Assembly: GCA_964349945.1 (NCBI GenBank)
Contig: CAYGIH010000001.1
Span: 3,934 to 67,933, forward strand
Source of the DNA: an uncultured Candidatus Saccharibacteria bacterium
Lineage (GTDB): Bacteria > Patescibacteriota > Minisyncoccia > Phycocordibacterales > Zambryskibacteraceae
Length of the DNA stretch: 64,000 nucleotides
Direction of reading: 5' to 3'
The translations under genes were made by a program, and so were the position numbers. The first letter of the stretch is position 1, and each line of letters begins with the position of its first letter. This document shows, piece after piece, positions 1 to 50,082 of this stretch. Below the pieces are notes generated by a model that saw nothing but the letters and a program-made list of their open reading frames with translations, did no database searches and had not been told where the DNA came from.

Positions 1-1343
1 TCGGTGAAGAAAGTTTTTCAGATAGGATGCAATATATTTTACAAAACACTATCCTCGCACTTTTGGAATATCCTGGGGCCACAATGCTTGGGATAAATAA
101 AATGCTTGTAGATAAAGCTTATAGGGACAAGGTTGTAGCCAATGTGACAGACTCATCAGTGAAAGTTTATTGGACCAAAGAGTTTGCTGGTTATACAGAA
201 AGATTTGCAGCAGAAGCTATCCCAGCCATTCAAAACAAAATTGGACAGTTTACTTCTAACCCATTAATTAGAAACATTATCGGCCAATCAAAATCTACTT
301 TTGATATCCGTGAATTCATGGATAAGAAAAAGATTATTATAGTTAACCTCTCGAAGGGACGAGTGGGTGAAGGTAATGCGAACCTCTTAGGTTCAATGCT
401 CATCACCAAGATTTACCTTGCAGCCATGAGTCGTGCAGACAAGAACAATGCTGAACTAGTCAAGCTCCCAAACTTTTATTTATATGTGGATGAATTTCAA
501 TCCTTTGCGAACGAGTCCTTTGCAGATATTTTATCTGAGGCTCGCAAGTATAAACTTAACTTAACTATCGCTCACCAATACATCGAACAGATGGAAGAAG
601 AGGTGAGAGACGCAGTCTTTGGTAACGTGGGCACGATGATCGCCTTTAGAGTAGGAGCTTATGATGCAGAAGTTTTGGAGAAAGAATTTGCTCCAACATT
701 CATCGCAGAAGATTTAGTGAATTTAGGGATGTATCAAATATATTTGAAGCTCATGATTGATGGGGTTTCTTCTAAACCATTTTCTGCGACGACTATGGCC
801 CCAATCAAGGCCCCAGAAATTAATTATAAAAAAGAAGTTATAGAAAGTTCTCGAGCTCAGTTTGCTCATTCTAGAAAAGATGTAGAGAAAACTATTTCAG
901 ATTGGCAAGGTGAAGCTAAACCAACAGAAGTACACGCCTTTTCTGGTCTTAAACACACAGAATACAAAACCAAGAAAGATGTCCACAGAGAAGTGAGACC
1001 AGAACCAAGACGAGATGTTCCAAGGGCCATTGACCCCAGAGCTATCAAAGAAGAAAGTGATGACTTCAAACCACTAACAGCTATTAATCTGCCTAAAATA
1101 TCACCAGCACCACAAGTACAAAAAGTTTCTTTGGATAATTTAAAGCCTAAACAACAAAATAATCAGCGACAACCAAGCAAGGAACACATGTCTGATTTGA
1201 GGAATGTGTTGGCTGGTATGGTTAAAAATGAACCTCCAAAATCAGAGGTAAAAAAAGAAGAATTAAAAAAACCAGAAGAAAAGAAAAAAACTAATGAACC
1301 TACTCCTGAAGAACTAAAAAAGATTTTAGGAGTTGATGAATAA
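1..1343 (+). CDS. Type IV secretion/conjugative coupling protein (VirD4/TraG/TraD family), C-terminal part. The reading frame is open to the window edge, so it is 5'-truncated here.
   Basis: ORF 27..1343, with the frame open back to nt 3. It contains the motif 'YLYVDEFQSF...ARKYKLNLTIAHQYIEQM...FGNVGTMIAFRVG', typical of the TraG/TraD C-terminal ATPase domain. The C-terminus is a K/E/P-rich disordered tail. Confidence 0.45.
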   Translation, partial: GEESFSDRMQYILQNTILALLEYPGATMLGINKMLVDKAYRDKVVANVTDSSVKVYWTKEFAGYTERFAAEAIPAIQNKIGQFTSNPLIRNIIGQSKSTFDIREFMDKKKIIIVNLSKGRVGEGNANLLGSMLITKIYLAAMSRADKNNAELVKLPNFYLYVDEFQSFANESFADILSEARKYKLNLTIAHQYIEQMEEEVRDAVFGNVGTMIAFRVGAYDAEVLEKEFAPTFIAEDLVNLGMYQIYLKLMIDGVSSKPFSATTMAPIKAPEINYKKEVIESSRAQFAHSRKDVEKTISDWQGEAKPTEVHAFSGLKHTEYKTKKDVHREVRPEPRRDVPRAIDPRAIKEESDDFKPLTAINLPKISPAPQVQKVSLDNLKPKQQNNQRQPSKEHMSDLRNVLAGMVKNEPPKSEVKKEELKKPEEKKKTNEPTPEELKKILGVDE

Positions 1344-2436
1344 AATGAAGCGAGTATTAATCTTCTCATTTGCATATGAGCCAGTGATTGGTGGAGCAGA
1401 AGTGGCGGTTAAAGAAATCACTTCAAGGATTAGTGATGTGGAGTTTGATATGGTGACCAAAAGGTTCGATGTGTCGCATAAAGGATTAGAAAGGATAGGT
1501 AATGTGAATGTTTATAGGATAAACTCTTCTAAATTATTTTTCCCAATAAAAGCGTATCTATTTGGTGAGAAGCTTCATAAACAAAAACCCTATGATGTTG
1601 TTTGGTCAATCATGGCCGCTTTTGCGGGCTTCGCAGCACTCTTTTTCAAAATGAGTTTTCCAAATGTGAAATATGTTCTGACTCTCCAAGAAGGTGATCC
1701 GATTGGACATATTAAACGTCGAGCGTTTTTTGTATCACCACTTTTTAAAAGAATTTTTCTAAAGGCAGATATAATCCAAGTTATCTCAAACTATCTTGGA
1801 GATTTCGCTCGTAGCATGGGGTACAAAGGTAGGATAGAAGTTATCCCTAACGGTGTAGATGTTCGCAAATTTGAAAACGTGCGATCCTCGGGGTCGCACA
1901 AGGATAAAGTGGTGCTTATAACTACTTCTAGGTTAGTGGTGAAAAATGGTGTAGGAGACATTATTGAAGCTTTAAAATATCTTCCAGAAAATGTTGAGTT
2001 ACAAATTGTTGGAGTTGGACCACTGGAAAAAGAGTTAAAGCAAAAAGTTAAAAGTTTACAACTAGAAGCTCGTGTGAAGTTTCTTGGATTTATAAAATAT
2101 GATGACATCCAAAATTGTTTACACGAGGCAGATATTTTCATACGACCGTCGCTTTCAGAAGGCATGGGGAATTCATTCATAGAGGCGATGGCTGCAGGAC
2201 TACCTGTGATAGCCACACCTGTTGGAGGGATAGTTGATTTCCTAAAGGACGGGGAGACAGGACTATTTTGTAAGGTAAAGAATCCAAGGAGTATCGCAGA
2301 GCAAGTGTTGAAGCTCATCAATAATTCAGAACTAAAAACTAAATTAGTAGAGAATGCTGGTTGTATGGTAAGGGAGAAATACGAATGGGATTTAGTGGCC
2401 AAGGATATGAAAGAACGAGTGTTTAATCATGGATAA
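1333..2436 (+). CDS. Glycosyltransferase family 1 (GT4-like)
   Basis: 367-aa ORF. The C-terminal region 'SLSEGMGNSFIEAMAAGLPVIATPVGGIVDFLKDGETG' is a classic GT1 EX7E sugar-donor binding region. It overlaps the upstream gene by a few nt, consistent with an operon. Confidence 0.8.
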   Translation: MMNKMKRVLIFSFAYEPVIGGAEVAVKEITSRISDVEFDMVTKRFDVSHKGLERIGNVNVYRINSSKLFFPIKAYLFGEKLHKQKPYDVVWSIMAAFAGFAALFFKMSFPNVKYVLTLQEGDPIGHIKRRAFFVSPLFKRIFLKADIIQVISNYLGDFARSMGYKGRIEVIPNGVDVRKFENVRSSGSHKDKVVLITTSRLVVKNGVGDIIEALKYLPENVELQIVGVGPLEKELKQKVKSLQLEARVKFLGFIKYDDIQNCLHEADIFIRPSLSEGMGNSFIEAMAAGLPVIATPVGGIVDFLKDGETGLFCKVKNPRSIAEQVLKLINNSELKTKLVENAGCMVREKYEWDLVAKDMKERVFNHG

Positions 2437-3070
2437 ATCACCAGAACAAGAAGAGAGCAAAGAATCATTTATAGATTTAGGTGTGGCTTTAAACCTTGAG
2501 GGATTGGTATTAGAACAAGCACATATTTTAGCCAAACAAATTAAAGGAAAAGCCAAATACGTTTTTACTCTTGATGAAAATGCACTGCCACATATTACTT
2601 TGTTTCAAGGGCGATTTGTAGAGGGGGTAGAGGGACGATTGGAAGAGTTATTGAAAGAATTATTAAAGGAAGGTATTGGAGAATTAGAAATGGAAGATAG
2701 GCTATTTTTTAGGCCAAATGGAAATGTTTTTTGGAATGTGAAAGATAACCAAGTATTAAGGGATCTACACGAAAAGTTAAATACTTTATTAATATCTGAG
2801 ACACAAGGGCTTCTAATGGATCAATTTCAAAAAATTATTGATGACCCAAATGCTTCTGAAACAGATAAATTACAAATAAAAAAATATGGAGCACTGCTTG
2901 CAGGAGATAAATTTTTACCTCATGTCACCCTTGGGCGCCTGATTAATCTAGAAGATAGAAAATTACTTGAAGATATAAAGGTACCTACACTTACATTTCA
3001 CCCAAAACATTTTATCTTGGGTAACCTCGGTTCATATGGGGAAGTAAAGACTGTTATTTCAAACTATTGA
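2429..3070 (+). CDS. 2H phosphoesterase superfamily protein (LigT / 2'-5' RNA ligase-like)
   Basis: 213-aa ORF with two H-x-T-x motifs ('PHITLFQ' and 'PHVTLGR') spaced about 100 aa apart, the hallmark of the 2H family. Confidence 0.55.
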   Translation: MDKSPEQEESKESFIDLGVALNLEGLVLEQAHILAKQIKGKAKYVFTLDENALPHITLFQGRFVEGVEGRLEELLKELLKEGIGELEMEDRLFFRPNGNVFWNVKDNQVLRDLHEKLNTLLISETQGLLMDQFQKIIDDPNASETDKLQIKKYGALLAGDKFLPHVTLGRLINLEDRKLLEDIKVPTLTFHPKHFILGNLGSYGEVKTVISNY

Positions 3071-3096
3071 CTTTTGGGTATAAGGTGTGATATAAT
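3067..3096 (+). promoter_or_regulatory. Sigma70-like promoter (TTGACT - 18 nt - TATAAT) for the GC-rich ORF
   Basis: TTGACT at 3067-3072 and TATAAT at 3091-3096. A consensus AGGAGG Shine-Dalgarno follows at 3133-3138, 7 nt before the ATG at 3146. Confidence 0.5.
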
Positions 3097-3145
3097 ATGG
3101 TTCGCAATAAGATCTTTGTTTTCTTGAATCAGAGGAGGTCAACTC

Positions 3146-3778
3146 ATGCTTGTTCGTGTTTCAGTTGGTAATCTTGCCCCTCGTGTAGTTGTGAAGGAGA
3201 CCGGAAACATCATCTTCTTTGGGGTTCTGAACTCTGCTTCCTACCGCAAGGGGGAGAAGAGGATCGGTGCCTTGGGCGGCGCAGCCGAGCTTACGGTCTG
3301 GGGCCGGAAGTTCCTCGAAGACAACTTCGGAGCAAGCGATTTCGAAGGCGAAGATGCTCGTTTCGTTGTCGACGATGCGCATCTGGAGGCAATCTTTGAG
3401 ATCTTTTTCAATCGTGATCCGAAGTTCTTCGAGACTGATCCCACGAGGGAGATCGTTGAAGAGCTCACGAAGGAGAAGATTGCCAGCCTTGGCACCATTC
3501 TTCAACCCGAAGATGTTGCTGGGGCCGTGGTCCAGTATGTGAAGACTGTGCGTCAGAAACAGGGTGCCGGCACTTCGGCTCGAGAGAAGGAGGGGATGCC
3601 CACTCGGCGTATTTTCCATTTCTTCGACCTTCTCGTGTCTGAAGAGGTGCTTCTGAAGATGATGGACCACGAGACCTTCCATCTCCTTTCGGACGAAGAT
3701 GTATTGACGACTGAAGGGGGCTCGAAGAAGGGTCGTACGTCTTCAGGTATCGAGATCGCCGACAACATCTTCTGGTGA
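3146..3778 (+). CDS. Hypothetical protein encoded in a compositionally anomalous (GC-rich, GC3-biased) island
   Basis: 210-aa ORF with a strong Shine-Dalgarno, an upstream near-consensus promoter and a downstream intrinsic terminator. From about nt 3190 the codon third positions are strongly G/C-biased (ttc, atc, aag, gag, gac, ggc). Every flanking gene uses A/T-ending codons. Because of the high GC, several other frames on both strands are also open across this span. Confidence 0.5.
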   Translation: MLVRVSVGNLAPRVVVKETGNIIFFGVLNSASYRKGEKRIGALGGAAELTVWGRKFLEDNFGASDFEGEDARFVVDDAHLEAIFEIFFNRDPKFFETDPTREIVEELTKEKIASLGTILQPEDVAGAVVQYVKTVRQKQGAGTSAREKEGMPTRRIFHFFDLLVSEEVLLKMMDHETFHLLSDEDVLTTEGGSKKGRTSSGIEIADNIFW

Positions 3779-3789
3779 AGGACGCAACA

Positions 3790-3822
3790 GCCCAGCGCAA
3801 TACATCGCGCTGGGCTTTTTTC
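3790..3822 (+). terminator. Rho-independent terminator
   Basis: GCCCAGCGC-aatacatc-GCGCTGGGC followed by TTTTTT. Confidence 0.7.
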
Positions 3823-3841
3823 TTTGTGTTATATTGGTCTC

Positions 3842-4615
3842 ATGCAAAATAGATTTGAATTTATAAAGACTCTTACAAGAGAAGCTGGACAGAAAGTGCT
3901 TGAAGCACGAGACAAGCATCTAGAAGTTTCATCCAAAGAAGGAGATTCAAGGAATTTGGTTACCAATGTGGATTTGGAAGTGAATCGATTTATCACAGAG
4001 AGGATTAATGCAGAATTTCCAAGTGAACTAATTTATTCAGAAGAAACAAAAGATAAAGTGAACGAATCAGGAAATTTCTGGTCGGTAGATCCAATCGATG
4101 GGACTTCAAACTTCGCTCGTTCTATTCCACACTTTGCAGTAGTGATTTCTTGGATGGAGAATGGTGAACCAACAATGGGAGCGATTTATAATCCAGTCAC
4201 AAATGAATTGTTCAGCTTCGATAAATCTCAAGGGGCGTTTTTGAATGATAAATCTATTAAGGTCTCTGATGTGAATGTGTTAAAGGATGCTTATGTTTTG
4301 CTTCACATAGGTCGCAAGGAAGATATAAGGGAGTGGGGTATTAATCTCCAAAGAGCGTTTATAGAAAAGGCGAAGAAAAACACAAACCTCGGTTCATCGG
4401 CCTTGGACTTAGCATACTTGGCTTCTGGACGAGTTGAGGTAGTTATCTATGGCACCATGACTACTATGGATATAGCTTGTGCCACAGCCCTAATCAGAGC
4501 ATCGGGAGGGGAAGTTTATTCTATAGACGGTACTCCGGTGAAATTCCTCACCACTCCACAGCAAATTATTGCTACTTCAAACCGAGCTTTATTTGAAGAA
4601 ATTTCAAAACTCTAA
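3842..4615 (+). CDS. Inositol monophosphatase family protein (IMPase/SuhB-like)
   Basis: 'WSVDPIDGTSNFARSIP' is the IMPase metal-binding motif W-x-x-DPIDGT. 'ALDLAYLASGR' is the second conserved motif. The ORF track starts at a TTG at 3824. The ATG at 3842 (MQNRFEF...) is preferred. Confidence 0.8.
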   Translation: MQNRFEFIKTLTREAGQKVLEARDKHLEVSSKEGDSRNLVTNVDLEVNRFITERINAEFPSELIYSEETKDKVNESGNFWSVDPIDGTSNFARSIPHFAVVISWMENGEPTMGAIYNPVTNELFSFDKSQGAFLNDKSIKVSDVNVLKDAYVLLHIGRKEDIREWGINLQRAFIEKAKKNTNLGSSALDLAYLASGRVEVVIYGTMTTMDIACATALIRASGGEVYSIDGTPVKFLTTPQQIIATSNRALFEEISKL

Positions 4616-5703
4616 GCCACAGCGAATTCTTTTTGTCTTTCTTTTTCTTCTTCTGAGCGGAGAGTATCGCGTTTGCCTTTATATTCATCCACTAATTCTC
4701 TAGGCAATTGTTCGTCTTCTAAAATATGTTCAAGCACTCTATGCCAGAAGGCGATGCGTTTTTTTGTAAGCTCATGAAGGTCTCCAGAGGTCTTAGGTAG
4801 AGAACGGATGTAGTAATCGATTAGATACCCAAGTTTATAAACTCGCATTAGACGGAGGTTTAGATATTCAACTTCTCCGCGGTTGTTTCGGACATAATCA
4901 GCCAAAAGCTTTTCAAGGTCTGGGTTATGAATAACCATATAATTTAGAAATCTTGCCCAACCTTCATACTTGTTTCCAAACTGTACAGCAGCTGCGTCGA
5001 GCACATACATTTTTTGTCCAGAGACACGAAAGTTGTGAGGGACAAAGTCTGTGTGTACCAAATGGTTTGAGTATGTGTCTATAGTAGCTTTGTTTTCCTT
5101 GAGGAATTTCTCAGCACGTTCTAGAACGTCTTCAAGTATTCCGTCTTCGTCAAGTTTTTTCACTGATGATTGAAACTCATTGAACGAATCAAAATAGGTT
5201 CGGGCGGTAAAAATAGGGAAGACAATACCTACTTTTTTAATATGTTCAAAGGTGGTGGCATGAAAAGCTTCTTGAGCCTCAAATGCCTTTAGAGCCATGA
5301 AGAATTGTTGTTCGAGTGGATGTTCAACGAAAACTTTTTCTTGAGCAATATACTCAGTGATATACATTAAGTATTCTCCAATTTGCCCAAAGTATAATTC
5401 TTTCGGAAAGAGTAAGACTTGTTTGGCGAAGGAAACAGATTGGAGTAAATCTCGAGCATTCTTTTCATAATTGATTTCTTTCTTACCATCCAAATGGTTT
5501 GATGCTTTGATAACTATTCTTTTACCATCTTTGTTTTGACCCATAAGCACCAACTTATTTCTGGTCATAAGGAATCTTTCTCCACTAATATGTGGTTGTT
5601 CTTCATCTAAAACATAACCAAGGGTATTGGTGGCTGTACTTATGGCGGCAATTTCTGTTTGGAGTCTTTCTTGCCAGAGGGTCTCTGTTTCGGTTGATTT
5701 CAT
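4612..5703 (-). CDS. Protein-kinase-like phosphotransferase (aminoglycoside/choline kinase-type fold)
   Basis: 363-aa ORF. 'LVHTDFVPHNF' has the form of a Brenner HxDxxxxN catalytic motif. 'MYVLDAA' is a DFG-like Mg-binding motif. Confidence 0.5.
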   Translation of the reverse strand: MKSTETETLWQERLQTEIAAISTATNTLGYVLDEEQPHISGERFLMTRNKLVLMGQNKDGKRIVIKASNHLDGKKEINYEKNARDLLQSVSFAKQVLLFPKELYFGQIGEYLMYITEYIAQEKVFVEHPLEQQFFMALKAFEAQEAFHATTFEHIKKVGIVFPIFTARTYFDSFNEFQSSVKKLDEDGILEDVLERAEKFLKENKATIDTYSNHLVHTDFVPHNFRVSGQKMYVLDAAAVQFGNKYEGWARFLNYMVIHNPDLEKLLADYVRNNRGEVEYLNLRLMRVYKLGYLIDYYIRSLPKTSGDLHELTKKRIAFWHRVLEHILEDEQLPRELVDEYKGKRDTLRSEEEKERQKEFAVA

Positions 5704-5745
5704 CGTCGTTTCATCCTATAGTAGCCTTATCTTTTCTGCAATTAT

Positions 5746-6714
5746 ATGAAAACAGTCATTCTCACCGGTGGGGCAGGTTTTATTGGTTCAGTGGTCGCTC
5801 GTGAACTTTTGGCCAAGGAATATAAGGTTGTTTGTGTAGACAGTTTTACTGATGATCTATATGATCCGAGTTTAAAGGAAGACAATGTTAGTGTCTTTAA
5901 AAATAATGAAAATTTTGTTTTGTATAGGACTGATATTTGTCATATAGAAGAATTAAAAAATATTTTTGAAAAGGAAAAACCAGAACTAGTTGTTCATCTT
6001 GCGGCCAGAGCCAACACCAGAAAAGCAGTTGGTGAACCTCAGAGTTATGTAGATACAAACATTAGTGGCACCTTAAATATTTTGGAACTTTCAAAGGATT
6101 ATAAAATCGGGAATGTTGTCATTGCATCTTCTTCAAGTGTTTATGGCAATAGTTCAAAAGTGCCTTTGAATGAAAATGATGTGGCTGATAAACCCCTTTC
6201 TCCTTATGGGATGACAAAACGAGCAGATGAAATGCTCGCATATACTTATCATCATAATTTTAATATGAACATAACATGCCTCAGGTATTTCAATGCTTAT
6301 GGAGAGAACAACCGCCCAGACCTCGTGCCTTATATTTGGGGAAATCTGATTTTAGATGATGGAGAGATAGAAATTTCTGGAGATGGTTCTAGGAGTAGAG
6401 ATTATACATATATAGGAGATATCGCAGATGGGACGATAAAAGCGATGGGAAAGCCTCTTGGATTTGAAATTATAAATTTAGGTAATAGTCGTCCGGTTTC
6501 TTTAAAAGAGTTAGTAGGAGTGTTTGAAAAGGTGACAGGCAAGACAGCAAAAGTGAAAAGTCGCCCAAGCAATAAAGCCAGTGTTGAATCTACTTGTGCA
6601 GATATTTCTAAGGCTAAAAAATTGCTAAATTGGGAACCAACAACACCAATTGAGGAAGGAATAGAGAAACTAATTATTTGGCTTAGAAACTATAGAACTA
6701 AAAATACTGTTTAA
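5746..6714 (+). CDS. NAD-dependent epimerase/dehydratase (UDP-sugar 4-epimerase-like SDR)
   Basis: N-terminal Rossmann motif 'ILTGGAGFIGS'. Catalytic 'SPYGMTKRADE' (YxxxK). Confidence 0.85.
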   Translation: MKTVILTGGAGFIGSVVARELLAKEYKVVCVDSFTDDLYDPSLKEDNVSVFKNNENFVLYRTDICHIEELKNIFEKEKPELVVHLAARANTRKAVGEPQSYVDTNISGTLNILELSKDYKIGNVVIASSSSVYGNSSKVPLNENDVADKPLSPYGMTKRADEMLAYTYHHNFNMNITCLRYFNAYGENNRPDLVPYIWGNLILDDGEIEISGDGSRSRDYTYIGDIADGTIKAMGKPLGFEIINLGNSRPVSLKELVGVFEKVTGKTAKVKSRPSNKASVESTCADISKAKKLLNWEPTTPIEEGIEKLIIWLRNYRTKNTV

Positions 6715-7821
6715 GTTTTTGATATGTGCTTCCCAAGAAAACTTTTCTTTTAAAAGTACATGACCTTGTTCGGCTAATTTTTGAGCATAGGCTGGGTCAT
6801 TGAATAATCTTTCTATGGCTCCGGCTAATCCTTGTGGATCATTTGGTTTAACAAGTAAGCCAGTCTTTTCATGATAGAGAGCTTCGTTTGTGCCTGGGAT
6901 ATCTGTGGCTATGGTAGGGATGTTGGCTGCGAAGCTTGTTAGCACTGTATGTGGGAGGCCTTCATAAGTAGAGTTTAGGACGTAAATTTCAGAACGTTTT
7001 CGTAGTTGCCATGTTTCTGCACGAGAAACTTTACCCAAAAGTTCAACCGCCTCATCTAAACCAAGCTCTGATTTAAGTTTTTTTAAATTTTCTAATTCTG
7101 GTCCATCTCCAGCCACAACTAGCTTTGCATCAGGGAACTTTTCTCTGACTATTTTTAAAGCTCTTATCATCCCGTCTATGCCTTTCCAGGCGACAAGGCG
7201 TGCAGTAGTGGCTATTTGATGCGGTACCTTTGTTGCCTCAAACGGGAGTACTTCTGTTTCTTCAGCAGCATTATAATTCACTACCGCCCTTTCATTTTTT
7301 ACTCCGTAAGTTTTTTTGAGTTCTTCGAGTAAATACGCAGATGGAGTAGTGACAACCTTTGCTTGTCTAAGGACAAATCCTTGAATCATCATCATTAGTT
7401 TAATTTTGATACCTCCTTCAGGAGAAGAAAGGAAGTCCTCCAACTTCTTTTCTGTGAGTTTATTTTGTGTAGCTCTTTCCCACGCTTCATCTCCAACAAA
7501 TTTAAGTGCAAAAGGTTTGTTGCAAAGTATAGAAACAAGTGCCACAGGCAATCCAGCGGCCATAGCATTTTGAACATAGATCAAATCCGCATTTTCACTG
7601 GCCTTATAAACGGCGAAGAAATATTTAATTAGTCGAGTGAATAATGGTCGCTGTTTGCTGACTGCGATTAGAGTTGTTTTTGGGAATGCCTCTCGGACAT
7701 CTGTGTAGGCTACCACTATGATCTCGTGTTGGTCATGGAGTCGTTCGCAGAGTTCTTTGGTGTATGTAGCTGGTCCACCGATTTCTGGTGGGTAAATTGG
7801 GGTGGCTATAACTATTTTCAT
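6670..7821 (-). CDS. Glycosyltransferase family 1
   Basis: 383-aa ORF. 'STYEGLPHTVLTSFAANIPTIATDIPGTNEALYHEKTGLLVKPNDPQGLAGAIERL' is a GT1 C-terminal domain. Confidence 0.8.
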   Translation of the reverse strand: MKIVIATPIYPPEIGGPATYTKELCERLHDQHEIIVVAYTDVREAFPKTTLIAVSKQRPLFTRLIKYFFAVYKASENADLIYVQNAMAAGLPVALVSILCNKPFALKFVGDEAWERATQNKLTEKKLEDFLSSPEGGIKIKLMMMIQGFVLRQAKVVTTPSAYLLEELKKTYGVKNERAVVNYNAAEETEVLPFEATKVPHQIATTARLVAWKGIDGMIRALKIVREKFPDAKLVVAGDGPELENLKKLKSELGLDEAVELLGKVSRAETWQLRKRSEIYVLNSTYEGLPHTVLTSFAANIPTIATDIPGTNEALYHEKTGLLVKPNDPQGLAGAIERLFNDPAYAQKLAEQGHVLLKEKFSWEAHIKNLNSIFSSIVSKPNN

Positions 7822-7874
7822 AGGAGTACTATAGCATTTCTAAACATCTAAAATAAAGCTATAATTAGACATAT

Positions 7875-8993
7875 ATGAAGAAAAAACTATTCTATATAGC
7901 CAATATGCGTATGCCCACGGAGCGGGCTCATGGCATACAAATTATGGAAATGTGCCAAGCTTTCTCTAATCTTGAATACGATGTGGAGCTTGTGGTGACC
8001 AATAGAAAAACGAGCGTTTTGGAAGATCCGTTTGTTTTCTATGATATTCCAGAAAGTTTTAAAATTACTAAACTTTGGTGTTGGGACGCCATAAATTTAG
8101 GAAGGATTGGTTTTTGGATTCAATCACTCACTTTTGCAGAAAGGACCGCATGGTATTTATTGAATAAAAAAGGCATTTTTTATACACGTGACGAATTATT
8201 GGCTGTTTATCTCAAGCTGTTTGGTAAAGATGTCGCGTGGGAAACTCATATGGGCAGAAATAATATTTTAGTTAGCATGATTAAAGCTCTTAAAATTCCC
8301 GTTGTCGCTATTACTGATGGACTTAAAGACGTTTATTTAAAAAGTGGCATGGCTAGTGAGAAAATTTTAGTAGCACCAGATGGTGCAGATATTGGTCGTT
8401 TTGATATTAGTATTTCAAAGCATGATGCCCGCAAACAGTTAAATCTTCCACAGGATAAAAAAATTATTCTTTATAAGGGGTCTCTTACTCCATGGAAGGG
8501 AGCAGGGACATTGGCTGAGTCTACAAAATTTTCAATGACTCCAGATACTCAATTTGTATTCATTGGTGGCAATCCAACAGATGTAGAAGAGTTTAAAAAG
8601 GAATTTGGTCATATAGAAAATATTTCTATACTAGGTAATCGTCCAAGGAAAGAAACACCAATTTATCAAAAGGCCGCAGATCTTCTTATTATCCCTAATA
8701 GTGCCAAGGAAGATATTTCCAAACTATATACATCTCCAATGAAGCTTTTTGGATATATGGCTGGTGGGGTGCCGATTATTGCTTCTGATTTGCCTTCTAT
8801 TAAGGAAATCCTTGGAGAGAAAGATGCTTATTTCTTTATTCCAGATGATGCGAGGAGTTTAGGAGAAATGATTGATAATGTTTTTTCAAATATAAACGAA
8901 GCGGAACAAAAAGCTTTAAAGTCTTTGTTCAAGGTCAGAGAATATTCATGGGAGAAACGCGCCGAGTCGATTTTAGCTTTTATTAAGGCATAA
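7875..8993 (+). CDS. Glycosyltransferase family 1-like
   Basis: 372-aa ORF. The C-terminal 'MKLFGYMAGGVPIIASDLPSIKEILGE' is GT1-like. Confidence 0.6.
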   Translation: MKKKLFYIANMRMPTERAHGIQIMEMCQAFSNLEYDVELVVTNRKTSVLEDPFVFYDIPESFKITKLWCWDAINLGRIGFWIQSLTFAERTAWYLLNKKGIFYTRDELLAVYLKLFGKDVAWETHMGRNNILVSMIKALKIPVVAITDGLKDVYLKSGMASEKILVAPDGADIGRFDISISKHDARKQLNLPQDKKIILYKGSLTPWKGAGTLAESTKFSMTPDTQFVFIGGNPTDVEEFKKEFGHIENISILGNRPRKETPIYQKAADLLIIPNSAKEDISKLYTSPMKLFGYMAGGVPIIASDLPSIKEILGEKDAYFFIPDDARSLGEMIDNVFSNINEAEQKALKSLFKVREYSWEKRAESILAFIKA

Positions 8994-9003
8994 TACACAA
9001 ATT

Positions 9004-10161
9004 ATGGAACAAGGTGAACTAAAGGTTTTAATGATTAGCACAGATAGGAAAATCCTTGAGGAGGGTAGCGCTGTGCGTGAGCGTATGAAGGAATACGGTA
9101 AGTTGGTCACAGAACTTCATATTGTTTTACTTTCTGATAAGGCACATAAATTAGTTGAGACAACTTTAGATAAAAATGTTTGGGTTTATCCTACAAACTC
9201 GAGTTCAAAATGGTTTCGCTCAAGTGGTGCTGCCACTTTAGGTAAGAAGATTGTTTTAGAAAAGAAATTTGTGCGTGGTCAATCGGTCATCACCACCCAA
9301 GATCCTTTTGAGTGCGGCCGGGCGGGTTTGAAAGTGAAAAATAAATGGCGAATACCTTTGGAAGTTCAACTTCATACTGATCCTTCTTCTCCATACTTTA
9401 GTGGTTTTTTAAATTTTATAAGGAAATATATTGCGAGGGATGTGATAAAGCATGCGGACACTATCCGTGTAGTGAGTGAGAAGGTGGGTGAAGATATTGC
9501 GAGCTCCTATAAGATAGACAAGAAAAATATAAAAGTACTTCCTATATATATAGACAGAGAGAAGATTGAAACTGGGGCAGTAAAGTTTGATTTGCACACA
9601 AGGTTCGGTTGGGGCTTTGTGCTTTTGGCTGTCTCAAGGCTTAGTGAAGAGAAAAATATAAGTATGATGCTTGAAGTTTTGAAAAAGATTTTACCTTTTT
9701 ATCCAACTACAGGATTAGTGGTTGTTGGTTCTGGTCCAGAAGAAGTAAATCTAAAAAAGAAGGCCAAAGACCTCGGTGTGGATGCTCATGTAGCTTTCGT
9801 TGGATGGCAGGATGAACTTTACACTTATTATCATACTTCAAACGCATTTATCCAGACTTCCTATTTTGAAGGCTACGGACTTTCTTTAGTAGAAGCAGGG
9901 TTGGCGGGGTTGCCTATTGTTTCTACTCCAGTAGGAGTGGCTAATGAACTTGAGAGTGGTGTAGACGCTTATATTTGTCCCCAAAATGATGTTGAGTATA
10001 TGTTTAAAGCAGTTTATGACCTTATAGAAAATAATTCTAAGAGAGAAAGCTTGAGCATAAATATTAAGAACAAAATTCGTTCTAAATTAATTTCTAAGGA
10101 AGATTATTTGGCCAAGATGAAAAGTGCTTGGGCTGAAGCTGCTCTAAAGGTAAATGCATGA
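9004..10161 (+). CDS. Glycosyltransferase family 1
   Basis: 'SYFEGYGLSLVEAGLAGLPIVSTPVGVANEL' is the canonical GT1 motif. Confidence 0.8.
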   Translation: MEQGELKVLMISTDRKILEEGSAVRERMKEYGKLVTELHIVLLSDKAHKLVETTLDKNVWVYPTNSSSKWFRSSGAATLGKKIVLEKKFVRGQSVITTQDPFECGRAGLKVKNKWRIPLEVQLHTDPSSPYFSGFLNFIRKYIARDVIKHADTIRVVSEKVGEDIASSYKIDKKNIKVLPIYIDREKIETGAVKFDLHTRFGWGFVLLAVSRLSEEKNISMMLEVLKKILPFYPTTGLVVVGSGPEEVNLKKKAKDLGVDAHVAFVGWQDELYTYYHTSNAFIQTSYFEGYGLSLVEAGLAGLPIVSTPVGVANELESGVDAYICPQNDVEYMFKAVYDLIENNSKRESLSINIKNKIRSKLISKEDYLAKMKSAWAEAALKVNA

Positions 10162-11204
10162 GACTTTTAATTCTTACTCAGAAAGTAGATAACAAGGATG
10201 ACATTTTAGGATTTTTCCATGAATGGATTAGAGAATTTTCAAAAAATGTAGATTCAATAATAGTCATTTGTTTGTGGAAGGGGGGAGTAGACTTGCCAGA
10301 GAATGTGAAAGTTCTTTCTTTGGGTAAAGAAAATAATTCTTCTAAACTAAAGCAAATTTTTAGTTTCTATAAATATATTTGGCAGGAACGAAAAAATTAT
10401 GATTCAGTTTTTGTACACATGAATCAAATCTATATTATTTTAGGTGGTTGGTTGTGGAAGTTGTGGCACAAAAAGATTGCTCTCTGGTATGTCCATAGAC
10501 AGAAAAATTTTAGTCTTTGGTTAGCTACAAGGTTAGTAAACAATATTTTCACATCATCTTCAGAGAGTTTCACTATAAAGAGTGATAAGGTTTCTTATAT
10601 TGGGCATGGAGTTGATTCTAGTAGATTTAGTATTAATGTTTTTAATAAAGACAATTCGAAAACAAAAATAGTTCATGTAGGTAGAATTTCTGAAATTAAA
10701 GATTTAAAAACTTTGATTTTGGCTGGAGCGATTTTAAAAGAAAAAATAAATAATTTATCCATAGAACTTTATGGTGGTCCGTCGAATGATGTAGATAGAG
10801 TGTATGTAGAGGAATTAAAAAAACTAATCAAGCAGAAAAATCTTGGAAATGTAATTTTGTTTAAAGGTCCAGTTTCGAATAGTGAGATTTCAAGTGTTTA
10901 TGCGGGCGCAAACCTATCTGTGAACATGAGCCCAAAAGGGGGTTGGGACAAGGTAGTTATAGAGTCTTTGATGGCTGAGTGCCCTGTATTTGCCTCAAAT
11001 TTGGCCCTAAAACCGGTGTTTGGAGGGGATAGCGACAAATTCCTGTTTGAGTATAAAAACCCTCAGGATTTGGCTTATAAGATTGAGTCGTTTTTGGCTC
11101 TAGAAAACAAAGAAGAAATCATCAAGGCTCTTCACGACCACGCAGTTGCTGAATATGATTTCAAGAATTTGATAAGGAAAATAACAGCAAAGTTAAATGA
11201 TTAA
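10158..11204 (+). CDS. Glycosyltransferase family 1-like
   Basis: 348-aa ORF with a GT-B like layout and a C-terminal 'VIESLMAECPVFASN' motif. It overlaps its neighbours by 4 nt (ATGA). Confidence 0.6.
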   Translation: MRLLILTQKVDNKDDILGFFHEWIREFSKNVDSIIVICLWKGGVDLPENVKVLSLGKENNSSKLKQIFSFYKYIWQERKNYDSVFVHMNQIYIILGGWLWKLWHKKIALWYVHRQKNFSLWLATRLVNNIFTSSSESFTIKSDKVSYIGHGVDSSRFSINVFNKDNSKTKIVHVGRISEIKDLKTLILAGAILKEKINNLSIELYGGPSNDVDRVYVEELKKLIKQKNLGNVILFKGPVSNSEISSVYAGANLSVNMSPKGGWDKVVIESLMAECPVFASNLALKPVFGGDSDKFLFEYKNPQDLAYKIESFLALENKEEIIKALHDHAVAEYDFKNLIRKITAKLND

Positions 11205-15274: not shown

Positions 15275-15961
15275 ATGAATCACTTTGATAACATACTTTC
15301 ATATACACCTGATTTATCAAAGAGAAATATTTTAGATGTAGGAGCAGGTAAGGGCAAATTTGTTATTGAGGGTACAAAACTTGGTTATAAAATTACAGGG
15401 GTAGAATATAACATTGAAAATGTAAATCTAGCAAAAAAAACAGCCAACAATCTCGGGATAGATATAAGTATTATTCAGGGTGAAGCGGAACACCTACCAT
15501 TTCCTGATAAAATCTTTGATTTTATAAATTTTTCAGAAGTTATAGAACATGTGAATAGCCCTGAAGAGACATTAAGAGAAGCTTTTCGTGTTTTAAATAA
15601 TGGAGGGGATGTTTATATTTCTGTACCTTGTAGATATTCTTGGTATGACCCACATTTTCATTTGGCGTTTGTTAATTGGTTGCCTAGAAATTTGTCTGAT
15701 TTTTATATTTCAGTTTTTAGTAAACATAAAGATTATAAGGGCGAATCCGGACATCAAAGACTTTCAGAAATGCATTATTATACTTACAACGATTTTGTAT
15801 ATCTAGCAAAAGATACAGGTTTTCAAATTGAAGATATAAGAAAGTTAAAAATTAAAAAAAGATTTGCTAATAAAATAGTTAGAGCTATGGTTGAGAGTGT
15901 GTATTTCTTAATTAGATCTTGGTATTTTAGGGCTTTTCATTTTAAACTCCATAAAATATAA
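15275..15961 (+). CDS. Class I SAM-dependent methyltransferase (Methyltransf_11-like)
   Basis: 'ILDVGAGKGKF' and 'FDFINFSEVIEHVNSPEE'. Confidence 0.75.
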   Translation: MNHFDNILSYTPDLSKRNILDVGAGKGKFVIEGTKLGYKITGVEYNIENVNLAKKTANNLGIDISIIQGEAEHLPFPDKIFDFINFSEVIEHVNSPEETLREAFRVLNNGGDVYISVPCRYSWYDPHFHLAFVNWLPRNLSDFYISVFSKHKDYKGESGHQRLSEMHYYTYNDFVYLAKDTGFQIEDIRKLKIKKRFANKIVRAMVESVYFLIRSWYFRAFHFKLHKI

Positions 15962-15965
15962 AAAT

Positions 15966-17024
15966 ATGAAAATTGGTTATTTATTACACACTATGAATGA
16001 AAAGAGAGGGGATGGTCGTTTTTCTTCAGATATTATCAATGAGGTTATTTCAAGAGGTCACGAAGTTATCGTTTTAAAGGCGATTAATGATGGATTGATG
16101 GGAGAAGTAATTCTTGACCGAGGTATAAACATTTTTAAATCATTATCACAAATCAGGAATTTATTAAAAGATTGTGACATTATCCATGCAATAGATCCTT
16201 ATCCATATGGAGTAATTGGTTGGTTGGTAAATAGAAAATTAAAAAAGAAATTCATTATTAGTGCTTTAGGAACTTATGCTGTGGCTCCACTTTATAGATG
16301 GCAAACTTCATTTTTAGTTAGACAAGCATACAAAAGTGCTTATAAGGTTGTAGCTATTAGTAAATTCACTAAAAGTAAAATTTTAGAAAAATTAAAGCTG
16401 GATAATATTTTAGTTATTAATCCGGGGATAAAATTATCCAATGAAAATCCAAAGAGAGTCGAGTCAAATGAAAAATTTATTCTTGGAGTTGGAGCTTTGA
16501 AAGAGAGAAAGGGATATCACATCGCATTAAGGGCTTTCTCGCAGATTTCCAAAGAATTTCCAGATTTGAGGTACGTGATTGTAGCTGACCCAGATAGGGC
16601 TTATAGAGAAATATTGGATAATATTGTAAAGAAAAATAATCTTGAGGGTAGAGTAGATTTTTTAAGTTTTATTTCAGAAGAAAAATTAGTTGAATTATAT
16701 TCAAGTGCTACTTTGTTTACTTTAACTTCTATCAATACTGCAGGCATTCACTTTGAGGGTTTTGGTTTGGTGTATTTAGAGGCGGCAAGTTTTGGCTTGC
16801 CGGTTATAGGGACATTTGACACTGGTGGAGAAGATGCAATAAATAATGGTAAGAACGGTATATTGGTTCATCAGAATAATGTAGAGGAGATCGCAGCGGC
16901 TATGAGAAAGATTCTTTCTGATAAATCTTTGTGGGGACAAATGAGCAAAGAGAGCCTTGAGTGGTCAAAAGTGAATTCTGTTGAAAGGGAAGTAGAAAAA
17001 ATTTTAAATATTTATAATTCATAA
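15966..17024 (+). CDS. Glycosyltransferase family 1
   Basis: 'HFEGFGLVYLEAASFGLPVIGTFDTGGEDAINNGKNG'. Confidence 0.8.
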   Translation: MKIGYLLHTMNEKRGDGRFSSDIINEVISRGHEVIVLKAINDGLMGEVILDRGINIFKSLSQIRNLLKDCDIIHAIDPYPYGVIGWLVNRKLKKKFIISALGTYAVAPLYRWQTSFLVRQAYKSAYKVVAISKFTKSKILEKLKLDNILVINPGIKLSNENPKRVESNEKFILGVGALKERKGYHIALRAFSQISKEFPDLRYVIVADPDRAYREILDNIVKKNNLEGRVDFLSFISEEKLVELYSSATLFTLTSINTAGIHFEGFGLVYLEAASFGLPVIGTFDTGGEDAINNGKNGILVHQNNVEEIAAAMRKILSDKSLWGQMSKESLEWSKVNSVEREVEKILNIYNS

Positions 17025-17025
17025 A

Positions 17026-17670
17026 ATGTATATATTCCAACCAGATAGATATTTATTGGATAAACAGATAAGAAAATTCTCTCATTATATAAAAGGGAAG
17101 GTTTTAGATGTTGGAGCAGGTGAGTTTAATCGATACAGCGGATATTTTAAATATTCGGAATATGTTCGGATGGACCCAAGGCACGTCGAACATGCGGATG
17201 TTGTGGGAAGTGCAGATAATATACCTTTACCGGACGAAAGTTTTGATTCTGTAGTTTGTACTCAAGTGTTTGAACATTTAGAAAATCCACAAAAAAGTGC
17301 TGAAGAGATTTATAGAGTTTTGAGGAAGGGTGGGTATGTTTTATTGACTGTGCCTCAAATGAATGAATTACACGAAGAGCCGTATGACTTTTTTAGATAT
17401 ACAAAATTTGGTTTAAAATCAATGTTTGAAAAGCCTGGGTTTGAAGTAGTGGAGATTGATCAAAGAGGGGGATACTATTCAACCATGGCTCAGATGAGAA
17501 TTCGTCATGCTATAGATAAGTATTCTTTATACAAGAATAAATTTTTAGGTAAAATATTTTCCCCAATATGCAAAATTTATGGCCGTTTTGCAATCTGGAT
17601 GGATAACTTGGATAAAAGTGTTTCAAATACTAAGCATACTATTGGTTGGTGCATCGTTTTAAAAAAATAA
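17026..17670 (+). CDS. Class I SAM-dependent methyltransferase
   Basis: 'VLDVGAGEFNRY' and 'VVCTQVFEHLENPQK'. It is a tandem paralog of the next gene. Confidence 0.7.
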   Translation: MYIFQPDRYLLDKQIRKFSHYIKGKVLDVGAGEFNRYSGYFKYSEYVRMDPRHVEHADVVGSADNIPLPDESFDSVVCTQVFEHLENPQKSAEEIYRVLRKGGYVLLTVPQMNELHEEPYDFFRYTKFGLKSMFEKPGFEVVEIDQRGGYYSTMAQMRIRHAIDKYSLYKNKFLGKIFSPICKIYGRFAIWMDNLDKSVSNTKHTIGWCIVLKK

Positions 17671-17671
17671 T

Positions 17672-18292
17672 ATGAAATCATTTAATAACACCAGAGAAAT
17701 AATAATTCATACCCAAAAATTTGTTCAAGGTAAGACATTGGATTTTGGAGCTGGTACTGCCAAATACAGAGGTTTAATTAAACCAAAAACAAGTGAATAT
17801 ATTACATTTGACATGATGGGGGGTTCAAATATTGATATAGTCGGTGATGTTTTAAATCCTCCTTTTAAAGATGGAGAGTTTGATACTGTTATCTCTACTC
17901 AAGTTTTAGAACATGTTGAGAAGCCGTGGGTTATGATTAATCAAATAGGAAGAATAATAAAACCCGGTGGTATTTGTATTATAACAGCACCTTTTATCGT
18001 CCCTTATCATGCAGATCCGTATGATTTTTTTAGATATACAGAAACTGGATTAACAAGTATGTTTAAAAATGAAAATTTCGAAATTGTTGAAAGCGGTAGC
18101 TATGGCAAAATATTCGGAGTACTTTCAGAAATGATTCACTTCTCTTTGTTTAGTCCTTATGAGGAGAGAGGAAAAAAATTGTTATCCAAAAGAATTATTA
18201 TGAGAATAGAAAAAATAGCTAGATTTCTTGATAAATTTGTTAAAAATAAAGTAATTTATTCTAATGTTTACGTTGTGGCAAGAAAAAAATAA
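17672..18292 (+). CDS. Class I SAM-dependent methyltransferase
   Basis: 'TLDFGAGTAKY', 'TVISTQVLEHVEKP' and 'DPYDFFRYTETGL'. These match the upstream paralog motif for motif. Confidence 0.7.
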   Translation: MKSFNNTREIIIHTQKFVQGKTLDFGAGTAKYRGLIKPKTSEYITFDMMGGSNIDIVGDVLNPPFKDGEFDTVISTQVLEHVEKPWVMINQIGRIIKPGGICIITAPFIVPYHADPYDFFRYTETGLTSMFKNENFEIVESGSYGKIFGVLSEMIHFSLFSPYEERGKKLLSKRIIMRIEKIARFLDKFVKNKVIYSNVYVVARKK

Positions 18293-18294
18293 TT

Positions 18295-20571: not shown

Positions 20572-20972
20572 AAATCATATTGAAATTCATAATTTCTGGT
20601 GGTACAGCTGCTTTCATAAATTTTTCCTCTTTTTTAATATTTACTAAACTTTTTCATTTTTATTACTTAACATCATCAGTACTAGCTTTCATTCTTTCTG
20701 CTGTTACCAGTTTCTGTTTACAAAAAATCTGGACTTTCAAAAATGTTTCTATTGAAAAGTTACACATACAGTTTGGTATTTATTTTAGTATTATTTTATT
20801 GAATTTAACAATTAATACTTCTCTGGTTTATTTATTTGTTGAATATTTATATTTAGGACATTTTGTTTCTCAAGTAATTGCTGGATCAATTTTGGCAATA
20901 GAAAGTTTTTTCATTTTTAAACATATAATATTCAAAAATAAGGTTATTGATTTACCAGAAAAACATATATGA
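20568..20972 (+). CDS. GtrA-family small membrane protein (polyprenyl-phosphate-sugar flippase-associated)
   Basis: 134-aa, 4-TM protein beginning 'KFIISGGTAAFINFSSFLIF', typical of the GtrA family. Confidence 0.65.
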   Translation: MKIILKFIISGGTAAFINFSSFLIFTKLFHFYYLTSSVLAFILSAVTSFCLQKIWTFKNVSIEKLHIQFGIYFSIILLNLTINTSLVYLFVEYLYLGHFVSQVIAGSILAIESFFIFKHIIFKNKVIDLPEKHI

Positions 20973-22386: not shown

Positions 22387-22388
22387 TT

Positions 22389-23615: not shown

Positions 23616-23672
23616 TTATCAAATTGAATCTAAACATTTCAATAACAACATTACTGTGATAACCTCATTTAT

Positions 23673-50030: not shown

Positions 50031-50082
50031 GTGATATATATTCTGCTAGGATAATTGTAATTGGAATTCTATAATATATGTT

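Follow-up and report, generated by a model that had tools for sequence, protein, structure and literature searches.

A GC-Rich Nudix-Like Gene of the Candidate Phyla Radiation: A Native Transcription Unit with a Probably Exchanged Coding Body

Introduction

Nudix hydrolases that degrade alarmones or decap RNA include NUDT16/X29 and RppH, together with ppGpp hydrolases of the NudG/Ndx8 type. The GDP-mannose mannosyl hydrolase WcaH/Gmm is a Nudix enzyme that is encoded within a polysaccharide gene cluster. In-situ replacement of resident alleles by xenologous ones has been described for capsule and O-antigen genes and for other variable surface or conflict genes. In this study, we analyzed a 64,000-nucleotide stretch of DNA (the window) from an uncultured Candidatus Saccharibacteria bacterium (contig CAYGIH010000001.1 of assembly GCA_964349945.1), in which a GC-rich open reading frame (ORF) at 3146-3778 of the forward strand encodes a Nudix-like protein of 210 amino acids (aa). 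We consider it fairly probable that this is a resident monocistronic gene of the candidate phyla radiation (CPR; Parcubacteria-type), related to Sa_NUDIX, whose coding body was swapped by homologous recombination.

The closest described family is Sa_NUDIX (PF18167), which is SMODS-associated and occurs in conflict systems of the CBASS (cyclic oligonucleotide-based antiphage signaling system) type. It was the sole Pfam family detected and was matched by 33 of 64 aligned relatives (E ≤ 0.01, best E 2.4e-9). Unlike the described family, the window protein is stand-alone and soluble, with no transmembrane segments and no extra module; no SMODS or CD-NTase (cGAS/DncV-like nucleotidyltransferase) gene lies nearby, and the surroundings are a housekeeping-like glycan neighborhood of the CPR instead of a defense island. 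Canonical Nudix hydrolases such as NUDT16/X29 and RppH are similar in that the predicted fold retrieves Nudix structures and in the presence of a GG motif and a REUxEE-type helix with conserved acidic residues. They differ in spacing, because about 50 residues separate the GG motif from the helix and the pattern is E-x4-RE rather than E-x7-RE; the TM-score is about 0.28, and no PF00293 match was found.

Small alarmone hydrolases of the Mesh1/SpoT type are related to this family through five relatives in which an HD domain is fused to the Nudix-like domain. The window protein has no HD domain; the functional link is one of guilt by fusion, and no alarmone synthetase was seen nearby. As with WcaH/Gmm, a Nudix-fold gene lies among glycosyltransferase and sugar-nucleotide epimerase genes, but no sequence similarity to WcaH/Gmm was detected, and the gene is a hypervariable transcription unit of its own, unlike a pathway enzyme. 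The locus shares with xenologous replacement loci its conserved flanks, a discordant central gene, breakpoints in conserved sequence, and an atypical composition. In contrast to those loci, a single small cytoplasmic enzyme-like gene is affected, it is GC-rich and not AT-rich, and the compositional offset recurs across lineages. A literature search on Sa_NUDIX and on codon usage in the CPR returned nothing specific. No new kind of system is demonstrated here; what deserves attention is the recurrent offset toward GC and C-ending codons in AT-rich hosts, the fast allele turnover in a protein that resembles a cytoplasmic enzyme, and the fusions to HD domains.

Results and Discussion

Composition and Expression Signals of the GC-Rich Gene

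The GC content of the ORF at 3146-3778 (+) was 0.531 (0.60, 0.37, and 0.62 at the first, second, and third codon positions, GC1 to GC3), compared with 0.374 for the whole window. Among 63,368 sliding segments of 633 bp (mean 0.374, standard deviation 0.048), the ORF stood at z = 3.3, and no segment outside 2600-4400 equaled it, the highest value there being 0.48. The 37 other long ORFs in the window had GC3 values of 0.16-0.35 (mean 0.281, standard deviation 0.052), which places the gene 6.4 standard deviations above their mean; its GC1 was also raised (0.60 versus a host mean of 0.44). GC3 changed abruptly within the gene, from 0.13 in codons 1-15 to 0.65 in the rest. An original prediction, made from the letters alone, had described a GC-rich ORF in AT-rich surroundings with a switch in third-position usage after about 15 codons, and these values confirmed both the shift and the switch.

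The same prediction had named a TTGACT/TATAAT promoter, an AGGAGG motif, and a strong terminator; over 10 kb, this promoter indeed gave the best match, and no other terminator was stronger. The predicted sigma-70-type promoter (3067-3096, +) consists of a -35 hexamer TTGACT at 3067-3072, an 18-nt spacer, and an extended -10 element TGaTATAAT, with the -10 hexamer at 3091-3096. It was the sole 11/12 match in 1-10000 and the sole one with an extended -10 TG. The number of promoter-like matches in this region (20) was not above the shuffle expectation of 25.9, and the credibility of the promoter derives from its conservation in orthologous loci, not from the scan alone. The stop codon of the upstream LigT-like ORF (TGA, 3068-3070) sits within the -35 hexamer.

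The promoter is followed by an AT-rich leader (3097-3145, +) with the Shine-Dalgarno sequence GAGGAGG at 3132-3138, 7 nt 5' of the ATG; with a transcription start near 3103, the 5' untranslated region would be about 42 nt long. No significant lack of structure was found in the 5' region of the transcript, which folded no better than shuffles (z +1.08). The first ~12 codons (3146-3180, +), MLVRVSVGNLAP, are mostly T-ending and share DNA homology with relatives that carry other alleles. They are followed by the GC-rich coding body of the Sa_NUDIX-like protein (3181-3778, +), the putative replaced allele, with a GC content of 0.535, whereas promoter and leader together (3067-3145) have 0.354. The intrinsic terminator (3789-3822, +), part of the conserved backbone, reads AGCCCAGCGC-AATACATC-GCGCTGGGCT and then TTTTTTC. 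Its hairpin at 3789-3816 has 10 pairs, 8 of them G-C, and was the strongest among 13 candidates.

Native Signals and Probable Replacement of the Coding Body

When the promoter regions of eight orthologous loci were aligned, TTGAC and the -10 hexamer were invariant, whereas the leaders were otherwise 37-82% identical. A strong terminator was present in every syntenic locus. The hairpin was nearly identical in the window and in loci L018, L014, and L015, and a different hairpin occupied the equivalent place in L002, L008, and L019. The promoter, leader, first ~12 codons, and terminator are therefore native, being homologous to those of the relatives. A "second promoter type", suggested by the likeness of the L015 and L002 spacers, was discarded, as the whole leaders were only 38% identical.

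Comparison of the window with L014 by blastn gave homology at 3054-3180 (74.6%) and 3789-10254 (77.7%) and left 3181-3788 unaligned. The coding body at 3181-3778 aligned with neither L014 nor L015 despite the 77.7% identical flanks, and the breaks in homology at 3180 and 3789 matched the compositional borders. The first 12 codons were 81-89% identical among the window, L018, and L014, whereas the next ~16 codons were 39-46% identical to L014. On this pattern, 3146-3180 is likely to be the 5' recombination crossover zone.

Discordant divergence of the kind that marks xenologous allele replacement, including recombinant combinations of flank and allele, was found. Right-flank proteins of the window were 83-92% identical to those of L014 and L015, but the Nudix-like alleles only 43-45%; the alleles of L014 and L015 were 62% identical to each other. 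L002 showed the reverse pattern, with more distant flanks (46-80%) and a closer allele (68%). Nonsynonymous divergence (dN) was 0.51 for the Nudix-like gene versus 0.06-0.10 for the flanks, where synonymous divergence (dS) was 1.4-2.7. In the short contig L018, the leader is 82% identical to that of L014 and 65% to that of the window, and the coding sequence has 90% protein identity to the window; as judged from these alignments, L018 is a direct recombinant with a crossover in the conserved N-terminal codons. The dN/dS ratio between the window and L018 was 0.12, a sign of purifying selection on the protein among alleles of one type. The left-hand genes (VirD4-like and glycosyltransferase family 4, GT4) were 59-67% identical to those of L014 and L015 and thus more diverged than the right-hand block, which puts the Nudix-like gene at a mosaic boundary. 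In the window, neither a template repeat of the diversity-generating retroelement style nor a repeat of the coding sequence elsewhere was found.

Most likely, then, the coding body alone is discordant with its surroundings and was brought in horizontally. The recent horizontal acquisition that had been proposed holds for this part, as an allele swap by homologous recombination, but not for the whole unit as an insertion. In the mechanism that we propose, the transcription unit would be an old, conserved part of a cell-envelope glycan/VirD4-like neighborhood, made up of a near-consensus promoter with an extended -10, a short leader with a strong Shine-Dalgarno sequence, and a strong terminator. 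The foreign part would be the coding body at about 3181-3778 only, swapped in by homologous recombination between a crossover within the conserved first ~12 codons (VRVSVGNLA) and a second one that falls at the stop codon or beyond it. Among related lineages, the exchange of alleles would roughly keep pace with the saturation of synonymous sites, because the window, L014, and L015 are about equally related and yet all carry different alleles. The allele pool would be rich in GC and C-ending codons (adenine at third positions, A3, about 0.08-0.13), and for this reason the coding body would stand out as a GC island in AT-rich hosts. The window allele would be partly ameliorated, with C3 down, T3 up, and A3 still low. 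Strong expression of the gene is suggested by its signals and by a skew of T over A and G over C at synonymous sites.

Family-Wide GC Excess and Its Possible Causes

In the 13 loci sampled first, the gene had a GC content of 0.49-0.61 and the flanks 0.31-0.56; in L023 and L024, the gene had 0.44 and 0.40. The values for gene and flanks were.53/.38 in the window,.59/.42 in L002,.55/.40 in L008,.57/.40 in L014,.59/.40 in L015,.51/.32 in L021,.50/.31 in L013,.61/.53 in L019,.53/.54 in L007,.57/.56 in L009,.55/.51 in L010,.49/.44 in L003,.44/.35 in L023, and.40/.35 in L024. GC3 of the gene equaled or exceeded that of the host genes in 13 of 13 hosts, with an excess of +0.02 to +0.40. Third-position composition formed a continuum across the alleles, from a GC3 of 0.79 to a host-like 0.34. 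The fractions A3/T3/G3/C3 were about.08/.15/.32/.45 in L019 (a GC-rich host), L002, L014, and L015;.10/.29/.31/.31 in the window;.11/.26/.30/.33 in L018;.13/.25/.32/.30 in L008; about.20/.25/.29/.27 in L013 and L021;.27/.32/.25/.17 in L023; and.38/.29/.16/.18 in L024, compared with.32/.39/.16/.13 in the host genes of the window. In AT-rich hosts, the alleles left TTA, CTA, ATA, AGA, and AAA almost unused, although these codons are common there.

The GC island of L015 (7100-8700) contains a second GC-rich gene and a GC-rich stretch without a called gene, and a 52%-identical homologue of this second gene adjoins the allele in the GC-rich host L019. On the strength of this sequence comparison, import is documented directly in the L015 island. 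We tentatively favor import from GC-rich relatives, at different stages of amelioration, as a self-consistent main cause of the GC richness here, and we favor, besides import, a strand-specific contribution tied to high transcription or translation. The GC richness may reflect import with incomplete amelioration or an active force such as codon selection or biased gene conversion. When the changes between the window and L018 were polarized with L002 and L019 as outgroups, the ratios of GC→AT to AT→GC at third positions were 12:4 and 15:5. This result was rejected as evidence of amelioration because the outgroups are saturated (dS 1.64) and GC-rich, which biases the inference toward a G/C ancestor.

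Several observations weigh against allele replacement from a GC-rich pool and against the function that we ascribe to the protein. High expression is deduced from sequence signals alone. No donor allele close to that of the window was found in a GC-rich host, the nearest, L019, being 58% identical. Deep divergence (44-68% identity, dS 1.1-2.0) separates the GC-rich alleles of AT-rich hosts, so that a recent import would be needed separately for each allele, from an unsampled GC-rich pool. The GC3 excess is one-directional in all 13 hosts, and A is four times rarer than T at the four-fold sites of the window gene (10 versus 41); neither is predicted by strand-symmetric import and amelioration, which suggests an additional force. 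As for the protein, the Foldseek matches are weak (best E 0.03, TM 0.28) and the Pfam threshold was not reached; no RelA/SpoT synthetase, CD-NTase, or SMODS family was found among the called genes of the fetched neighborhoods, and the alarmone-like substrate considered below is a guess.

An unlikely rival to import is that high GC3 is actively kept by selection at synonymous sites, either for very high expression or for translatability under particular conditions. AAG, TTC, ATC, CTC/CTT, and CGT would then be kept against an AT mutation bias, and allele swapping would not be the cause of the island. The excess in 13 of 13 hosts, GC-rich ones included, is in line with such selection, as is the near-absence of TTA, CTA, ATA, AGA, and AAA from the alleles of AT-rich hosts. 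The strand asymmetry points the same way: A3 is 0.08-0.13 and T3/A3 is 1.7-3.0, compared with 1.0-1.3 in every host gene set, and the four-fold sites of the window gene hold 41 T, 10 A, 29 C, and 26 G. Among third-position differences between the window and L018, A/G changes (10/85) were half as frequent per site as C/T changes (34/125). Four alleles that are 44-62% identical have almost equal third-position compositions, and near-consensus promoters and strong terminators are kept in all syntenic loci.

However, high GC3 is not obligatory, since AT-rich or near-host alleles exist (GC3 0.34 in L024, 0.41 in L023, and 0.49 in L003). In an Akashi-type test, conserved residues were not significantly richer in G/C-ending or non-A-ending codons than variable ones (Mantel-Haenszel odds ratio 1.1-1.2, p 0.3-0.5). 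In addition, the excess is small in GC-rich hosts (+0.03 to +0.13), codon selection fails to explain the GC-rich stretch without a called gene in the L015 island, and the window holds no ribosomal-protein, EF-Tu, or tRNA genes that could serve as a reference.

A stronger form of this idea, which we regard as decidedly unlikely, is that the low-A3, GC- and C-ending usage is an actively maintained, lineage-independent trait that renders the mRNA "codon-insulated" from the AT-rich usage of its host. If this were true, the gene would encode a hypervariable, strongly expressed Nudix-type hydrolase of a nucleotide (alarmone or signal) in the CPR, for which such usage could secure extreme expression. 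The mRNA could also stay translatable when the decoding of A-ending codons is attacked or such codons are cleaved, as by ribosome-dependent RNases or tRNA-targeting toxins in the course of a phage or host conflict, and the rapid turnover of alleles would then reflect an arms race.

GC-biased gene conversion, in which a recombination hot spot with G/C-biased heteroduplex repair would raise GC wherever the gene resides, appears very unlikely. Recombination is directly evident from breakpoints at the edges of the coding sequence; in every host the excess is positive, and GC1 is raised as well. Nevertheless, the process is strand-symmetric and does not predict the shortage of A relative to T at four-fold sites, and an AT-like allele occupies the syntenic slot in L023. 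The effect observed here (+0.3 to +0.4 GC3) is also too large; to our knowledge, effects attributed to biased gene conversion in bacteria are far smaller. A GC-rich gene resident in many AT-rich hosts thus offers a natural test case for amelioration versus codon selection versus biased gene conversion.

Insertion, Second Function, and Assembly Artifacts

The original prediction had interpreted the promoter, ORF, and terminator as a self-contained and recently inserted mobile cassette, possibly a phage moron or a defense or toxin gene with its own promoter and terminator. The compositional island with its strong signals, the remote likeness to Sa_NUDIX and to the "2TM effector" models of CBASS in PADLOC, and the non-syntenic L003 copy, which adjoins a DDE transposase and a zeta-toxin-like kinase, are compatible with a cassette. 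Even so, this explanation is largely refuted and now highly improbable. The search for the same cassette in other genomes returned one and the same syntenic slot in contigs of more than 10 lineages of Patescibacteria, and the gene was present in the slot of all syntenic relatives, so that no presence/absence pattern of an insertion was seen. Nor were the signals imported: relatives that carry other alleles have homologous counterparts of the promoter, the leader, the first ~12 codons, and the terminator, and promoter and leader are AT-rich. The borders of the locus had no flanking repeats and no integrase, transposase, or other mobility gene. No homologue of the Nudix-like protein was found in viral contigs (IMG/VR), INPHARED phages, or PLSDB plasmids, and no CD-NTase partner in any fetched neighborhood. 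For a putative role in defense or as a toxin, the single link is distant homology to the Sa_NUDIX domain of CBASS-type effectors. What looked like a textbook foreign expression cassette would thus be a native transcription unit with nothing but its coding body exchanged, and compositional islands in the CPR are therefore not to be equated with insertions.

It is barely credible that the DNA or RNA owes its GC richness to a further role, for example as an overlapping antisense gene or as a structured RNA. An antisense ORF of 173 aa is present at 3161-3682 (-), with sense position 3 corresponding to antisense position 1. In other alleles, however, the open antisense runs are broken differently (56-227 codons) and are short in L007, L021, and L023; runs of this kind are to be expected when TTA, CTA, and TCA are avoided. 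We rejected an overlapping antisense gene for lack of conservation of the open frames. The whole transcript folded better than shuffles (z -3.5; 20 shuffles), but much of this excess is estimated to come from the terminator hairpin, and no Rfam match was obtained. An assembly chimera, in which a GC-rich fragment of another organism was joined into the contig, had also been considered. The abrupt GC change over ~700 bp in metagenome-derived sequence is compatible with it, but its probability is negligible: an identical protein occurs on four contigs, independent metagenomes (L002, L008, L014, L015, and L021) show this arrangement again, each with a GC island of its own, and neither border interrupts the reading frame, the conserved N-terminal codons, or the terminator.

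A Divergent Nudix-Like Protein

In the Pfam scan, the Sa_NUDIX match of the window protein scored 20.6 bits (E 4.5e-4), below the gathering cut-off of 25, so it is understandable that the protein had at first been described as lacking a recognizable motif. The PADLOC "2TM effector" models of CBASS weakly matched the same domain. An exhaustive HMMER scan of 1.84 billion cluster representatives yielded 186 related clusters (50% identity) at E ≤ 0.001, mostly stand-alone proteins of 205-230 aa. Relatives above the PF18167 gathering score include P0091 (39.8 bits) and P0026 (31.2 bits). An AlphaFold2 model built from the family alignment had a pLDDT of 96.6 and a pTM of 0.90 (predicted local distance difference test and predicted TM-score, respectively). 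When this model was searched with Foldseek, all of the top 50 PDB matches had a Nudix fold (NUDT16, X29, RppH, and others), and the BFVD matches were mostly Nudix proteins; the matches in both databases were weak (E ≥ 0.03, TM about 0.3). Sequence searches of the PDB with the protein and with the family profile found no homologue.

A GG motif at residues 44-45 is conserved, as is a helix with the pattern E96-x4-R101-E102-I-x-E105-E106-L107; in the window protein, position x is V and the helix is encoded at about 3431-3466. E106 was present in 61 of the 64 relatives, position 102 was always E or D, and R101, E105, and E96 were conserved as well. The spacing of this Nudix box (E-x4-RE) is not canonical, and the GG motif lies ~55 residues upstream of the helix. 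Based on the AlphaFold2 and Foldseek matches, the occurrence of PF18167 in relatives, and the conserved motif residues, we read the protein as a divergent Nudix-fold protein that is probably catalytic.

Four relatives (P0026, P0027, P0054, and P0159) carry a Mesh1/SpoT-type HD domain at the N-terminus and one (P0031) at the C-terminus. Although Pfam did not detect this HD domain, the fusion-domain profile matched human HDDC3/MESH1 (3nr1, E 1.8e-7), Drosophila Mesh1 (E 6.7e-6), and Rel/SpoT hydrolase domains (Rel, E 1.3e-3). The protein may well be an active pyrophosphohydrolase that acts on a nucleotide-derived molecule. Our best guess for its substrate would be a 3'-phosphorylated or pyrophosphorylated (alarmone-like) nucleotide, because the fusion of relatives to the Mesh1/SpoT-type HD domain is the sole concrete functional clue. 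Alternatively, the glycosyltransferase/GalE-like epimerase neighborhood suggests a nucleotide-sugar substrate.

The fusion gene at L025 4896-6158 has three co-directional ORFs of unknown function on its downstream side and a divergent gene for an AsnC-type regulator on its upstream side; no recognizable alarmone synthetase or defense gene was found in this neighborhood. Among the five family clusters that were looked up, one had a source name, "hypothetical protein". The family defines an uncharacterized, CPR-centered, stand-alone branch of Sa_NUDIX-like Nudix proteins, characterized by a conserved slot, strong expression signals, unusually fast allele turnover, and Mesh1/SpoT-type HD fusions. 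This branch offers a testable way into the nucleotide or alarmone metabolism of organisms about whose physiology little is known.

Conserved Neighborhood and Variable Slots

The conserved gene order is VirD4-like, GT4, a variable slot, the Nudix-like gene, a gene of the inositol monophosphatase (IMPase) family, a gene for a kinase-like protein of 363 aa (-), an epimerase gene, and GT4 (-). This order recurs in L002, L007, L008, L009, L010, L014, L015, L016, L019, L021, and L023. Carriers of the gene in this slot include GC-rich contigs in which it is compositionally unremarkable. By their organism titles, L008 is a Saccharibacteria metagenome-assembled genome, L009 belongs to Minisyncoccia, and L010 to Adlerbacteria; the L002 allele shares its 90% cluster with a protein annotated as hypothetical in Parcubacteria bacterium C7867-005. 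Of the four contigs that carry a protein identical to that of the window, one, from an ENA assembly, has the same gene order and 100% protein identity, and the other three were grouped as similar sites.

The IMPase/CysQ/HisN-family phosphatase gene at 3842-4615 (+; Pfam Inositol_P, E 2e-54) is the first gene of the conserved right-hand block. No NCBIfam equivalog was reached for it, and assignment to CysQ, HisN, or SuhB failed. It follows the Nudix-like gene directly, or with at most one inserted gene between, in 10 loci (L002, L008, L009, L010, L014, L015, L019, L021, L023, and L001, the last being from the window organism); in L007, two genes lie between. An AT-rich, weakly PP2C-like gene lies between the Nudix-like terminator and the IMPase-family gene at L015 8709-9506 (-) and L008 5471-6025 (-). 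The next gene, at 4612-5703 (-) of the window, encodes the conserved 363-aa protein with an APH/choline-kinase-like motif, HTDFVPHNFRV, and a weak Pfam APH match (E 0.03). It is always convergent with and adjoins the IMPase-family gene, and it is duplicated in tandem in L008 (6807-7832 and 7829-8794). Three L008 genes, GT4 (3281-4401), IMPase-family (6058-6810), and epimerase (8896-9881), each matched the window protein in two pieces in different frames, a sign of either pseudogenes with frameshifts or errors in the assembly.

The variable slot upstream of the promoter is occupied in the window by an AT-rich gene at 2429-3070 (+) for a LigT-like 2H phosphoesterase (Pfam LigT_PEase, E 1.4e-6; NCBIfam 2',3'-cyclic phosphodiesterase, E 2.2e-6, below cut-off). 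No copy of this gene was found by tblastn in any other compared locus. The slot contains an EamA transporter gene in L014 (7009-7875) and is empty in L002 and L008. In L015 (7111-7659, 182 aa) and L019 (937-1449), it holds a gene for an unknown protein of 170-182 aa, 52% identical between the two loci, for which no Pfam, NCBIfam, or PADLOC match was found. The L015 gene is GC-rich although its host is AT-rich, and the encoded protein may be a partner of the Nudix-like protein in some lineages.

A second variable slot, between DUF4015 and the VirD4-like gene, contains small, unrelated ORFs that are GC-richer than their hosts: L002 2208-2507 (-), L008 1125-1463 (-), and L001 3789-4340 (-), with GC contents of 0.58, 0.46, and 0.44 and GC3 values of 0.68, 0.53, and 0.49, respectively. 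GC-rich cargo in variable slots may be a general trait of these AT-rich CPR genomes. A non-syntenic family member with 50% identity and host-like GC content was observed in L003-L006 (7929-10645); upstream of it lie a zeta-toxin/AAA_33 kinase gene, a fragment of a DDE transposase, and a canonical NUDIX gene. This was the sole context encountered that resembled a mobile or conflict region.

Elsewhere in the window, a co-directional run of low-GC genes (15275-24389; GC 0.23-0.34, GC3 0.16-0.25) lies within a glycosyltransferase/methyltransferase array and may be a low-GC island of glycan variation. Two giant ORFs are arranged in tandem, one of 3,296 aa at 39898-49788 (+) and the other of at least 4,650 codons at about 50050-64000 (+), open at the end of the window. 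The 3,296-aa ORF is rich in repeats of the "GNVGIGTTSP" type, and the two have a similar motif at the N-terminus, SKK.GY..DHI.ALIR.GKV.GKK.GR.W.V; both probably encode surface proteins of very large size. The secondary GC maxima of the window (~0.46, near 42.1-42.7 kb and 61.2 kb) are located inside these giant ORFs.

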